Part shown: positions 3,707 through 18,317 of the stretch, in pieces
Layout: every line of letters starts with the position of its first letter
How positions within the stretch are numbered: position 1 is the first letter of the stretch
From: a virus
Taxonomy: Duplodnaviria; Heunggongvirae; Uroviricota; Caudoviricetes
Length of the DNA: 44,441 bases
IMG/VR virus record: IMGVR_UViG_2778261530_000005
Reading direction: 5' to 3' (one strand)
Position numbers and translations under genes: made by a program
Notes under the pieces: generated by a model
What the model saw: only the letters and a program-made list of their open reading frames with translations
Told to the model about the DNA's origin: nothing
The model's database searches: none

Positions 3707-6700
3707 TAAGCCAGATGCAGTGCTTCAAGACGACGAAGATCAAAGTCGTTTAATTCGTCGGTATAACTTTCGGTAATCGGTGCTGGCCAGTTGTTTGTCT
3801 CTAGAGCTTCGTTTATCTGGCGTAGCGTCCGGCGATATTCCTGTCGACCAAGTTCAAGGAGTTCCTGCGAGGCTTCCACGACTGCCACCCAGTGATAGCC
3901 AGCATCTTTGTTGACGAAGATCCAGAAAAATTTGTCCAGGTTTGCCACATCGCAATACATTGCGGCGCTGAGGTGATAATCACGCTCAATAATTTCACGG
4001 TGCAGGCGATCTTTAAGTCGTTCCTGCCGCACATAACCGAGGCTGACTGACTTCACGTCAGCGCAAATGCTTTCGTATGGCAGCCGGATTTCGATATCAG
4101 GACGGACCCTGATTTCCAGCCCGGTTTCTTCATCAAACCCGAAATAGCTGATTTCAGATTTGCGATCCGGGTGGTTGAGTAGCCTTGCTGCATCGGTATT
4201 GTTTTGCAGTGCCGCGTGAATATTTTTTGCCTGTTCATACATATCCGGACTGATAAACGTTTTCCCGGCGTTTTCTTCTTGCTGGCGTTTTTGCCAGTCC
4301 TCCAGTGTCACCAGTTCCGGGCGAATTTTCCGTGCGATTTCGGTTAATTGCTCTTTTGTGCCACTGATGTTGTAAGGCAAAGATTTAGCACGTTCTTTTT
4401 TTGCCAGTTCTGGATCTACAGTTTCAATTTGATCCAGAAGCTGCTCCCGTGCTCCACTGGTTTTCAACAGAGGAGGGAGGCTTGCGTTGTATTCTTTAAT
4501 ACAGGCTTTCATTGCTGATGCTGTGTGTTTTTCCCCCTCAGGAATACGCCGAAATTCCACCGGAAGCGAACCGTAAAGGATGCCTGTTTCTTCGGCCCCA
4601 GCACTTACAGACAGTGGCTGTATAAGAGTGCTGTTGTAGCTTTCGATCCACTCTTTCATCTGCTCTGGTGTCATCAGTGCTGGCAGACTGGCATTGTGTT
4701 TTTTAATGATGGCGATCAGTTCGTTAGAAGTAGTAACCACATATTCAGGAACCGGTACCGGAATGGCATATTCATCTGCGAATTTATCCGTTTCCAGAAC
4801 ATAGCTGTGAATGATCCGCCCACGCAGCAGTGCGTCACTTTCCTCGTTCGGAATAGTTCCGGCAATGTGCCGCCCGTGGTAATACATCAGGCTGATACGG
4901 GCATCCTTCAGCATCGTGCTGCTTATTCCGTTGGCGGAGTGATAAACCTCGTTCGGGAGGTTTTCATAGCGGCCTGGCTCGAAATATGACGGCCACATGA
5001 TTTCAGTTGCTACAGGAGCTGACGCTTCGCCAGTTTCATCACTGCAATTGCGATGCGGATCGCTGTCAGCATTCTCATTGTGCTGATGTTCAGCGCCTTC
5101 CATTTCCTCCGGATCTTTTTCCAGAGATTCATCCAGATTTTCTTCATTAAATGTTTCCTGATACGTTGCGTCGCCCATCGCCGCGCCACAATCAGGGCAG
5201 TTGCCCCCACCGATCTGACCGCAGGCGGTGCAGACTTTTTCCGGTTCTTGTTGCTCTTCTGGTTCAGGCTGTTTCGTTTCTGGCTCGTTTTGTTGCGTAT
5301 TTGGGCTGTTTTGTTCCGCTTTCTTGTCGTTCTGTTCCGTTTCTTGCTGGTTCTGGTTCACAGAGTCGAGGGTTTCAATCCCCTTAACCCATTTCGGATC
5401 GTTCGGGTCGCTAATCCCTTCAACAAATTCTCCGCGAGAGGCAGCCAGTAATTTGTCTGCATCGACAGGATTTTTGGGCGGAATGTTTTTCCGGGCTTCA
5501 TGGAGTTCTGCCCGCAGTTTCTGATATTTCGCATCAACAGAATTTACCTGTGACTGAGCATCCAGCGGCTGCGTGTTCTGATGATGTTCAGTTGCATTCG
5601 GTTCCACTGTTTCAGCCGTTGCCTGTTCATCTGCCATTGCGCCAGATGGTTGTGGTTTTTCTTCATCGTCCTGTTTTCCTTCTTCTGTTACTCGCTGCGG
5701 CATCGGGGCAGAGGAGCGACCGCAGGCAATATCCACGATTTCCGGATCAGGGTTGGCATGATCGGTTTCAGTCAGTACTTTGTTCAGATATTCAGTGACG
5801 TGTGCGGGGATGACCTCGATCCCAATTGGTGCTTCTTTCACGGACGCAACCACGATGGCGCGGGAATAATCCAGCCCGCCAGGCATGGTGATGAATTTGT
5901 CGCGGAAAACAGAAAAGGGTGGTTTATTTTCAGCGATAATTTCCTCAATGCGTTTAGCGTGTGCCGGATGAAGGTTATAAATGTCCACGTCCATTGAACG
6001 GGCCAGTACGCCAGTGGCTACATCGCGTGCCAGTGACGTCAGATCGTGGACGAAACCTTCGCCGCGATCGGTGAGGTTCCCGCCGCCAGCATTAGCACCG
6101 GAAGCCGTGCGAGTGATGCGTGAAACACGATTTCCTTTCATCCACTCTTTTGTCAGCAGACCGCGATCGGTGTAGTCTGCGTCCAGGTATGCTTCGAAAA
6201 AAGCAGTCATCAGCCCCAGACTTGAATTGCCTGGATTAGGGAAAACTTTGTCAGTATCACGAACCAGTCTGTGAAGATCGCGAATCTCCAGCGGGTCGAG
6301 CAGGCTGGTTTTGTGGGAAACAGCTAGGGCAGTAACAGCTGGTAGTTCTTCGGCCCGTGCAATATGTAATGTCTGGAGTTCGTCGCGTGAAACGTGCGTT
6401 ACCGGTTTTTCGCTGCCGTGTTGAGCAAGCCAGCGAATGGGCAGCTCTTGGCCAGAAATCGGGAGTAGCATATTCTCCTCAATCTCAGTCATGTCTTCGC
6501 CATTAACATTGGTATTGTCAGTGCTGTCTGGTTTGTCCTGCGCAGAGGATGAGGGCGCGATAAATACCATTGTGATGCCATCTTCCCCGCCTTTTTCGTA
6601 ACGGTTGCAGAATTCCGTATCAAATACGCCTTCTGGTGGAAGGTCATCAACAACGGGCAAATTGACGCGAACAGGTTTTTTAAAGTCATCTTCATCGTAG

Positions 6701-6855: not shown

Positions 6856-6954
6856 TGTTTTTTAACCTCAACTCAGATTAAAATTACTGCGAGTGATGAA
6901 TAAATGTCCATGGTTCTTCACTCAGGCCTGCACAGTGTGCAGGCTTTCTTTTTT

Positions 6955-16594: not shown

Positions 16595-16884
16595 TGGTGG
16601 ATTTACGTAAAGCGGCGCGGGGGCAGATGTGCACCGTCAGAATTCCTGGCTACTGCAATCACAATCCCGAAACTTCTGTGCTGGCGCATTACAGGCTGGC
16701 GGGGACGTGCGGAACAGCGACAAAACCACACGATATGCAGGCAGCGATTGCCTGTAGCTCATGCCACGATCTAATCGACGGGCGGGTAAAAACCAGCGAT
16801 TACACCAAAGAAGAATTACGCCTGATGCATGCAGAAGGTGTTTTTCGCACACAAGAAATCTGGAGAAAGGAAGGTTATTTATGA
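16594..16884 (+). CDS. YbcO-like Cys-rich putative nuclease (DUF1364-like)
   Basis: 96 aa with several conserved-looking Cys/His; nin-region position preceding Q. Confidence 0.5.
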   Translation: MVDLRKAARGQMCTVRIPGYCNHNPETSVLAHYRLAGTCGTATKPHDMQAAIACSSCHDLIDGRVKTSDYTKEELRLMHAEGVFRTQEIWRKEGYL

Positions 16885-17435
16885 TTTACCCAACAAATAC
16901 AGGCAAAAGCGGGGAACACCTTCGTCTCACCACGCTGGAAAGTGTCTGGATTCAGGGAAAACTGCGCATGTGGGGGCGCTGGTCGTATATTGGCGGCGGT
17001 AAGACGGGAAATATGTTCAACCAGTTGCTGACCTCTAAAAAGCTGACAAAAACGGCAATTAACGAGGCGCTCCGGAGGATGAAAAAAGCAGGTCTGGACA
17101 AACCTGAACTTGAGGCTTTTTTGCGGGATATGATCAACGGCAAGCAAAAAAGCTGGCTGGTGCATTGTACTGATGCAGAGGCGTTATGCATTGATCGGGT
17201 GATTAGTGAAGTGCTGGCAGAACACCCAGGATTGATTTGTATCCTCCGGCAACGATATGAAGGGAGGGGGATGACTAAGCGCAAAATGGCTGAATTGCTG
17301 AATGATTCACACCCTGAGTGGTGTTACGCCACGTGCCGTAATCGCATAGATGCGTGGTTGAAAATGGCAGAGTTTATGCTCTATCTGCCGATGCGTGATG
17401 CATTCTCTTCCGGGGATCTAAAAACCGTCTGTTGA
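16881..17435 (+). CDS. Late-gene antiterminator (Q-like)
   Basis: 184 aa from MIYPTNTGK…; immediately upstream of a near-consensus promoter and short terminated leader, upstream of the lysis cassette. Confidence 0.55.
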   Translation: MIYPTNTGKSGEHLRLTTLESVWIQGKLRMWGRWSYIGGGKTGNMFNQLLTSKKLTKTAINEALRRMKKAGLDKPELEAFLRDMINGKQKSWLVHCTDAEALCIDRVISEVLAEHPGLICILRQRYEGRGMTKRKMAELLNDSHPEWCYATCRNRIDAWLKMAEFMLYLPMRDAFSSGDLKTVC

Positions 17436-17461
17436 CTCAATCTGTTATCCGGGGCTATATT
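17432..17461 (+). promoter_or_regulatory. Candidate late promoter PR'
   Basis: TTGACT (17432-17437, overlapping the Q stop codon), 18-bp spacer, TATATT (17456-17461). Confidence 0.55.
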
Positions 17462-17522
17462 CCTCACGCGCCAGCAAAATCTGGCGTCGGGATTGGCGTC
17501 CTGGATAGAGACCGCGACAGAT

Positions 17523-17548
17523 ACACGCCGCGAGCGTGTTTTTTATTG
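17523..17548 (+). terminator. Candidate tR' terminator, about 60-80 nt downstream of PR'
   Basis: ACACGC-CGCGA-GCGTGT hairpin followed by TTTTTTATT. Confidence 0.55.
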
Positions 17549-17705
17549 TCGTATGCACGCGCACATCTGAATTATGGTGGGCTGTGTGGGGGCGGAGAGA
17601 TCCGCGCCGGTCGGTTTCCCGGTTACGCCAACCCTGCACAGTTCACCACCAGATGATTGGCGTCGTCGGTGGTGAGTTATTAAGAAACCACCAGAGGGCG
17701 TCATT

Positions 17706-18317
17706 ATGACAACTCAAATTTCTGTTGAAACTCTCTCCCCGATCACCCATAACCAGATTCCTGTTATTACCACCGAACTTTTGGCGCAGCTTTACGGCAC
17801 TGAGCCGGTGCGCATTCGCCAGAATCATCATGAGAACAAAGTACGCTTCGTTGAAGGGAAACACTTTTTCAAAGTTGTTGGTAATGACCTTAAAGAATTG
17901 CGGGTAGCTTTAAACTACTCACAAAATTTGCGGGTTACTTTAAGTAACTCACAAAATTTGCAACCATCTTTAAGAGGGTTACAAATTTCCCCGAAAGCCC
18001 GCTCCCTCATCCTCTGGACAGAACGCGGAGCAGCCCGTCATGCCAAAATGCTCGAAACCGATCAGGCGTGGGATGTGTTCGAAAAGCTGGAAGACTGCTA
18101 TTTCAGACAAAAGGATCCGTCAGCGCCAGCTTCATGCCAGAAAAGTTACGACTCGCGAGTTCTCTGTTATCAGCGAGGCGGTGTCACTGTTTCCACAATT
18201 CAGTTGCGGGATGATGATATTGTTATTTCCCTTGAGTCATGGCTGGAACTGGCGAGAGCCAATGGTTGGTTTGTTGTTCGCAGAGATAAACTGGTGGAAA
18301 GGCTGATGCAGCTTTAA
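17706..18317 (+). CDS. ORF6N/Bro-N-like domain protein with an internal 10-aa tandem repeat
   Basis: 203 aa; N-terminal region resembles the ORF6N/antirepressor N-domain; contains three 30-bp in-frame tandem repeats; first gene of the late transcript. Confidence 0.5.
   Translation: MTTQISVETLSPITHNQIPVITTELLAQLYGTEPVRIRQNHHENKVRFVEGKHFFKVVGNDLKELRVALNYSQNLRVTLSNSQNLQPSLRGLQISPKARSLILWTERGAARHAKMLETDQAWDVFEKLEDCYFRQKDPSAPASCQKSYDSRVLCYQRGGVTVSTIQLRDDDIVISLESWLELARANGWFVVRRDKLVERLMQL

Follow-up and report, generated by a model that had tools for sequence, protein, structure and literature searches.

An array of palindromes inside an ORF6N gene

We have analysed a 44,441-nucleotide stretch of DNA from a virus of the Caudoviricetes (IMG/VR record IMGVR_UViG_2778261530_000005; the whole stretch is referred to here as the window) and describe an array of three 30-bp units, each of them an imperfect palindrome, that lies in frame within a gene for an ORF6N-domain protein (Table 1). 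The match of this protein to Pfam PF10543 (score 68.8 bits, cut-off 27.8 bits; E 5e-19) places it in the ORF6N family, and it also matches the anti-repressor family PHROG 2379 with an E value of 9e-93. The Pfam alignment sets residues 12-115 on profile positions 3-86, 104 residues on 84 positions. The domain therefore carries about 20 residues more than the profile, and the array is an insertion relative to the family.

In codon register the array runs from 17898 to 17987 and encodes residues 65-94 of the open reading frame (ORF). A preliminary description, made from the sequence alone, had reported three in-frame 30-bp tandem repeats in an ORF6N-like gene. The repeats are real and encode the three 10-residue peptides that were listed (Table 1), but the span given for them, 17897-17986, is one base off the codon register. 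The units lie head to tail and have a length divisible by three, and in these respects they form an in-frame variable-number tandem repeat (VNTR). At 17898-17961 Tandem Repeats Finder detects 2.1 copies with a period of 30 (85% matches, score 93), and a second, overlapping row extends to 17974. A search for inverted and direct repeats returns a 30-nt direct pair together with inverted repeats centred on 17941 and 17971. Units 1 and 2 have 25 of 30 bases in common and unit 3 shares 18 of 30 with each of them; we regard unit 3 as homologous to the other two because relatives contain intermediate forms, LRVSLRHLQI (locus L072) and LRLSLRESQI (locus L069). A search of the window for TTGCG-N6-TTTAA-N5-TCACAA, allowing up to three mismatches, gave six occurrences against 0.54 expected, all three units being included, and found no copy of the motif elsewhere in the 44 kb. 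The window contains one other tandem repeat, at 5269-5355 (period 21, 4.1 copies, 74% matches, Tandem Repeats Finder score 79).

Each unit is a palindrome of 27-33 nt with a centre the size of a triloop, and its axis falls on the second base of the fifth codon. The arms of unit 2 are 19 nt long and 84% complementary and those of unit 3 are 17 nt long and 88% complementary, with a 1-nt spacer in both cases, and by score these two are the top near-loopless palindromes of the whole window. As imperfect inverted repeats with a short spacer and the capacity to form a hairpin, the units are quasipalindromes. The calculated hairpin of unit 1 (33 nt, 17895-17927) has a free energy of -2.3 kcal/mol as DNA and -8 kcal/mol as RNA; for unit 2 the values are -5.5 kcal/mol (z -4.8) and -11 kcal/mol (z -6.9), and unit 3 folds as DNA with -7.3 kcal/mol (z -5.1). 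All five differences between units 1 and 2 are at mirrored positions (9/19, 10/18 and 17), and the stem of unit 3, AACCATCT/AGAGGGTT, is unlike those of units 1 and 2 and is still self-complementary. The preliminary description had also assigned a palindromic core to each unit; a palindrome is indeed present, but the core that was quoted, AGTTACTTTAAGTAACT, does not occur in the sequence, which reads GGGTTACTTTAAGTAACTC. The perfect core is GTTACTTTAAGTAAC (what had been written AGTTACT... should be GGTTACT), and the imperfect palindrome around it spans 39 nt (17922-17960). The third-best palindrome of the window is an imperfect one of 44 nt, TGACATTACAGAAGCTCCTTTGATAAGGGGCTTCGATAATGTCA, at 21223-21266, and others lie at 6924-6946 and 19281-19305.

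The junctions between units carry the motif AAAATTTGC, which recurs at 17953-17961 and has imperfect copies at 17891-17899 and 17981-17989. AAATTT is its own reverse complement, so that the stem bases at the unit ends are at once direct repeats 30 bp apart and inverted repeats, and are thus a substrate for slippage. We considered -1 frameshifting at A_AAT_TTG and rejected it, since the heptamer already contains the start of the stem and is absent from other clades, and a stop follows immediately in the -1 frame.

At the protein level the array codes for the variable end of a helix and a loop between the conserved GKHFFK strand and the SLILWTERG strand of the domain, and this segment is the least conserved in the alignment of ORF6N proteins. 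In the AlphaFold2 model residues 72-99 form a low-confidence loop (pLDDT, the predicted local distance difference test score, 36-49), and the repeat-encoded segment is accordingly predicted to be a surface loop of variable length and low order. The fold of the ORF6N domain bears a weak resemblance to winged-helix DNA binders.

Table 1. Features of the ORF6N locus, in window coordinates
Feature	Coordinates	Strand	Basis and remarks
Q-like gene (DUF1133, weak antitermQ match)	16881-17432		
Sigma-70-like promoter, strong, TTGACT-18-TATATT	17432-17461		Scan
C4 target c4-a1b1	17455-17507		Rfam, 50.5 bits (gathering score 46.7)
isrK	17468-17544		Rfam, 75.5 bits (gathering score 50)
Terminator-like site	17523-17539		Scan
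Short upstream ORF, 57 aa from GTG, later internal starts	17536-17709		TGA overlaps ORF6N start (ATGA)
C4 antisense RNA	17570-17653		Rfam, 66.7 bits (gathering score 45)
ORF6N-domain gene, AnrP/Ant-like 'antirepressor', 203 aa	17706-18317	+	ORF list, Pfam, PHROG, AlphaFold2 model
Unit 1, LRVALNYSQN	17898-17927	+	Imperfect palindrome, centre T17911 (Leu TTA codon, second base)
Junction motif AAAATTTGC, stem bases	17923-17931	+	Read from sequence
Unit 2, LRVTLSNSQN	17928-17957	+	Palindrome, centre T17941, arms 17922-17940 / 17942-17960
Unit 3, LQPSLRGLQI	17958-17987	+	Palindrome, centre T17971, arms 17954-17970 / 17972-17988
Terminator-like site, 3' of ORF6N gene	18410-18435		Scan

Copy number, distribution and symmetry of the palindrome

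Among the 120 closest protein clusters, one, two, three or four units lie between ...LKE and SPKARSLILWTERG, in proteins with three different C-terminal domains, and the same range of one to four is seen in 160 IMG/VR viral loci. The shortest linkers read LRLSLRESQ-IS and LRVALNYSQN-PIS, and the four-unit alleles carry a duplicated unit 2; several of the four-unit protein clusters are annotated as partial. The O157:H7 strains G5295 and F8797 show no mismatch over 2,407 bp and differ by one 30-bp unit (three copies against four), a copy-number polymorphism between otherwise near-identical alleles of the kind that defines a VNTR. This difference is direct evidence that a unit has recently been gained or lost, and the 30-bp indel falls in the register of the AAATTT junctions. 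Two of the roles proposed in the preliminary description can be judged in this light. That of a copy-number-variable linker is borne out by homologues with one to four units, by the O157:H7 pair that stands one unit apart and by the low-confidence loop in the structure prediction. That of recombination-prone sequence holds for slippage-type gain and loss of units but not for a hotspot of exchange between diverged genes, as discordance across the array (0.04) is not above that within the upstream half of the gene (0.14).

We note that the N-terminal ORF6N module, the first 135 or so residues of which are 96-100% identical, is fused to at least three different C-terminal parts; in clusters P0001-P0120 these are a 203-residue form, a form of 240-244 residues with P22AR_C and a form of 242 residues, each occurring in versions with differing numbers of units. 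A full-length copy of the gene is also present in a phage of Actinobacillus pleuropneumoniae (PP818812.1, 15830-16411), an unexpectedly close relative outside the Enterobacteriaceae; it has 84% DNA identity and spans 582 bp as compared with 612 in the window, and so is 30 bp shorter.

The palindrome reaches much further than the array. In a scan that took one genome per species, palindromes of unrelated sequence occupy the same spot in the domain in many lineages, among them Salmonella, Pectobacterium, Photorhabdus, Xenorhabdus, Acinetobacter, Chromatium, Thiorhodococcus and Roseospira (locus L210, for example, has CCGAGCAGAGGGTCTTAAAGACCCTCTGCTCGG), and in the ORF6N genes of Lactococcus, Bacillus, Paenibacillus, Thomasclavelia and Fusobacterium phages the best palindrome is again at this position. 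Among the phage ORF6N genes scanned, a palindrome at this position is absent from phiCD27, Osiris and SaltyDalty, and probably from CDMH1 too. We also scanned about 135 codons of each of 90 distinct Firmicutes-type viral loci. The stretch bounded by the GKHFF and LWTE motifs accounts for just 18% of that length but contains the top palindrome in 77 of the 90, and in 68 of these 77 the palindrome is centred 11-15 codons before LWTE. Tandem arrays have arisen independently at loci L167, L171, L176, L186, L203, L208 and L354; such arrays, of two to four different palindromes, occur in Symbiopectobacterium, Pectobacterium, Citrobacter, Xenorhabdus and Acinetobacter, and one with a 42-nt period is found in a Firmicutes-type contig. 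Because the palindrome is widespread and the arrays are independent, the single palindrome is ancestral and the triplication in the window is derived. The conserved feature is thus the palindrome and the direct repeat is a derived one, a distinction that the preliminary description, though it noted the palindromic core, had not drawn. We consider it very probable that an ancestral palindrome at one site of ORF6N genes has been tandemly multiplied, with variable copy number and with complementarity at the level of the DNA. One of the independent arrays, that of L176 (Acinetobacter chengduensis, match 701-1105), reads LRVTKSNSQN-LQPSQRGVQIS, close to units 2 and 3, after a different first palindrome, and this resemblance suggests that arrays may have spread horizontally between phages of Enterobacteria and Acinetobacter.

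Across more than 300 related loci the dyad symmetry is kept by compensatory changes, including switches between synonymous codons. In 29 distinct unit sequences 81.7% of cells are paired, compared with 26-48% when the partners are slid; both sides change in 11 of 16 pairs, and the covariation score is 0.345 as against 0.157 after shuffling (0/500), related sequences being counted here as independent. When 65 distinct linkers from other genera are recoded synonymously, their best-palindrome score falls from 9.10 to 4.57, close to the background of 4.44 in the same genes, and as they stand 52 of the 65 outscore the 95th percentile of the remaining windows of those genes; the symmetry is therefore not a by-product of the peptide. 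Mirrored arginine and serine codons go together as AGA with TCT and CGN with TCA or TCG (Fisher 1e-5), the second codon position is the palindrome centre in 74 of 74 cases, and the mirrored residue pairs are those that complementary codons specify (R-S, L-Q, T-S, S-R, V-N/Y/H, P-G and H/N-V). We also took a census of mismatches in 101 palindromes, penalising every non-Watson-Crick pair equally, and counted 14 G·T, 15 A·C and 47 others in Proteobacteria and 6, 10 and 37, respectively, in the Firmicutes-type set, so that in these 101 palindromes there is neither an enrichment of wobble (G·U) pairs nor a strand bias. Both strands of the array region fold equally well. From the lack of both G·U enrichment and strand bias, and from the like folding of the two strands, we infer that the property maintained is Watson-Crick complementarity of the DNA and probably not an RNA fold. 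It is probably not a fixed recognition sequence either.

Genomic setting and comparable systems

Judged by its gene layout and Rfam matches, the region upstream of the ORF6N gene is a module of the isrK-orf45-anrP (Gifsy-1) type, and 17455-17653 is, on the same grounds, probably the RNA control leader of P1 immI/Gifsy-1 isrK type of an E. coli lambdoid prophage. The end of the Q-like gene coincides exactly with the start of the sigma-70-like promoter (17432), which may be that of isrK, the late promoter or both. In O157:H7 the same N-terminal module is located in the nin region, which means that any role of the repeats is independent of the isrK/C4 leader. The promoter and terminator scan found nothing in or facing the array, which also lacks the G+C-rich stem and T-run of an intrinsic terminator, and in an Rfam scan of 17300-18500 the array itself drew only rivX, on the minus strand (21.6 bits; gathering score 100). 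Two ORFs at 18455-19353, of 90 and 209 residues, the latter with hydrophobic stretches, separate the ORF6N gene from the holin, and neither has a Pfam match. The phage 24B small RNA 24B_1 and d_ant were considered and set aside as having no relevant link to the element.

The element has points in common with several known systems. Like in-frame VNTRs of the contingency or linker type, it consists of head-to-tail in-frame units in a disordered segment, with alleles that differ by one unit, but its units are each palindromic and diverge while remaining self-complementary, and the single-copy state is itself conserved. In the lambda origin of replication, O binds a dyad-symmetric array of repeats, the iterons, within the linker-coding part of gene O, and the copy number and sequence of the iterons vary among lambdoid phages. 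The ORF6N array is likewise dyad-symmetric and in frame, and it too occupies the stretch of a phage regulatory or replication gene that encodes a linker; however, the iterons of one phage share a sequence that O recognises, whereas the ORF6N units differ from one another and have no known binder. The hr elements of baculoviruses are also tandem imperfect palindromes of about 30 bp and often lie beside bro genes, members of the 'Bro network', but they are non-coding enhancers or origins bound by IE-1, and the likeness may be one of form only.

Also comparable are the quasipalindromes attributed to template switching (the Ripley model and the E. coli quasipalindrome hotspots; Lavi et al. 2018, PMC5941160), which resemble the ORF6N palindrome in being imperfect inverted repeats with a tiny loop, in their mirrored multi-base differences, in conserving symmetry rather than sequence and in their strand-symmetric behaviour at the DNA level. 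The ORF6N palindrome differs from them in that it is coding, tandem, codon-phased and fixed in one domain position across phyla, where it dictates pairs of amino acids; the survey of Lavi et al. covers non-coding repeats only. The layout of the locus as a whole matches antQ-isrK-orf45-anrP of Gifsy-1 (Hershko-Shalev et al. 2016, PMC4825925), where a Q-like gene, isrK, a C4-like RNA and a short ORF, the stop codon of which runs into the following start (ATGA), precede an ORF6N antirepressor-like gene. In Gifsy-1, IsrK is reported to activate translation of the antirepressor-like AnrP and orf45 to be translationally coupled to anrP, and the ORF at 17536-17709 of the window is similar to orf45. 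The passages of that paper that were consulted deal with the 5' leader and do not describe an intragenic palindrome; the palindrome is also found in genes that have no isrK leader. Full-text literature searches on ORF6N, on antirepressors in connection with palindromes or hairpins, and on KilA-N/Bro-N in connection with palindromes brought up no account of the element; a satellite-integrase paper that mentions ORF6N lists the domain and nothing more. The ORF6N element joins two known kinds of sequence, in-frame VNTRs and conserved quasipalindromes, in a form (codon-phased, family-wide and dictating residue pairs) that appears to be new.

Origin and maintenance of the palindrome

The explanation that we find best as a whole, and towards which we lean without great assurance, is that a palindrome has been multiplied by hairpin-assisted slippage and has had its symmetry kept mainly by template switching. 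The AAATTTG stem bases are direct repeats exactly 30 bp apart that a hairpin would bring together, and replication that slipped from one to the other would gain or lose entire in-frame units and so give rise to alleles with one to four units, which fits the O157:H7 indel. After duplication the units would diverge, each remaining self-complementary. Symmetry could be kept by intrastrand template switching, the self-correction of quasipalindromes whereby replication uses one arm as the template for the other; such switching has been documented for quasipalindromes of E. coli, and conserved inverted repeats in Proteobacteria have been ascribed to correction of this kind (PMC5941160). Here it would act in a protein segment that may tolerate almost any sequence and length, and selection for a function that depends on a hairpin or cruciform may add to it. 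Template switching would account for a palindrome that keeps its position by descent, is symmetric between the strands, drifts freely in sequence and is located in an unconstrained loop. That slippage is the source of the array we hold to be quite probable, given the anatomy of the units and one natural event; that template switching rather than a dedicated function is the main force keeping the symmetry is a more tentative choice, which we would put at somewhat less than an even chance.

Several points weigh against this account. A single synonymous change could mend 71 of 140 mismatches, and yet these persist, C·A at CGN/TCA and A·G at CTA/GAG doing so in most of the unit types of E. coli; a fast correcting drive should remove them, and their persistence is better suited to a threshold of stability. 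A neutral process would be hard put to keep the palindrome in about 80% of cases across phyla; by a back-of-envelope estimate, this would require a switching rate that exceeds the per-site mutation rate by a factor of tens to hundreds. The case for template switching comes from mirrored multi-base differences and covariation between codon families rather than from switch events observed directly, the covariation statistics count relatives as though they were independent, and slippage is deduced from the anatomy and a single natural 30-bp indel.

A rival possibility is that selection maintains the palindrome for its capacity to extrude or fold in supercoiled or single-stranded DNA and to act in cis. 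It would then be an ancient, codon-phased DNA hairpin or cruciform of ORF6N genes across phyla that dictates the residues of the loop, possibly slowing the passage of transcription or replication through the gene of a toxic regulator in a structure-dependent, supercoil- or replication-sensitive way, or serving as a device for programmed hypervariability of the loop, with the number of hairpins (one to four, and three here) tuning the effect. Synonymously repairable mismatches that persist are what a stability threshold predicts, and persistence of the palindrome at a single site in Proteobacteria, Firmicutes-type and Fusobacterium phages alike, the repeated origin of arrays, complementarity that is kept while the sequence freely varies, centres made of A and T only (TTTAA, AAATT, TAATA), which favour extrusion, and strand-symmetric types of mismatch, as expected if both strands matter, all speak for such selection. 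However, no known process is tied to a structure of this kind in ORF6N genes, the stems are short and that of unit 1 is weak (-2.3 kcal/mol as DNA), and some 15-20% of family members lack a clear palindrome. We regard a functional DNA hairpin, and each of the roles suggested for it, as rather unlikely, and rank the passive, self-correcting explanation slightly ahead of it, with hairpins in the mRNA and then an operator array further behind.

Hairpins in the mRNA might act in cis as sites for RNase III or decay, or as signals for pausing or translation attenuation, adding a post-transcriptional layer over the isrK/C4-type RNAs. The units do fold as RNA (-8, -11 and -8 kcal/mol; z -3.4 to -6.9), as does the 111-nt region around them (z -3.8), the gene sits behind isrK and C4 elements, and antirepressor genes are known targets of control by RNA (PMC4825925). 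But selection on an RNA stem should leave many G·U pairs, and in the 101 palindromes G·U is not enriched over A·C or transversion-type mismatches; moreover, the antisense strand folds at least as well, the weak rivX score is the sole Rfam match, genes that have the palindrome vary widely in what lies upstream, the nin region of O157 being one such setting, and no U-tract follows the stems, which are thus not terminators. An RNA function is in our view improbable. We give slightly less credence still to an operator or iteron-like array, a repeated DNA-binding site of the sort raised in the preliminary description, in which a dimeric protein, possibly the ORF6N domain itself, would bind the palindromes within its own gene; a site placed inside the coding sequence of its binder's domain would hold the two together during module shuffling. 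The units are strand-symmetric palindromes with an odd centre, their 30-bp spacing is about three helical turns and their outer arms are conserved within clades (TTTGCG...CACAAA or ACAGAG...CTCTGT). Against this, units within one gene (in the window and at L167, L176, L186 and L208) differ at inner symmetric positions while remaining self-complementary, units 1-3 share no recognition sequence (they differ at 5-12 of 30 positions, mostly inner symmetric ones), the predicted helix-turn-helix helix does not covary with the two types of outer arm and no further copy exists in the 44-kb window. Roi of HK022, which is reported to bind a site within roi and might have been a precedent for binding within its own gene, is of the Rha type and not ORF6N, and its gene has no comparable palindrome; a by-eye match to an IHF site, with three mismatches, was also rejected. 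Least probable of all, and in our judgement very improbable, is a purely protein-level repeat in which the peptide motif is selected and the palindrome is incidental. The unit is in frame and a regular 10 residues long, with leucine at positions 1 and 5, but synonymous recoding abolishes the palindrome signal, codons for identical amino acids covary, and no part of the domain is less conserved than this peptide, which is predicted to be disordered.

The number of 30-bp units is a strain-level polymorphism in prophages of O157:H7 and is a likely cause of assembly breaks. If the palindrome is functional, then a large family of phage regulators has an unrecognised cis element inside its coding sequence, one that could affect prophage induction, including that of Shiga-toxin phages, in which the ORF6N gene is common. 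If instead it is a self-perpetuating quasipalindrome, it would show with unusual clarity how, in nature, a process at the level of the DNA can shape a protein sequence, mirrored residues having been set by codon complementarity over very long evolutionary distances.
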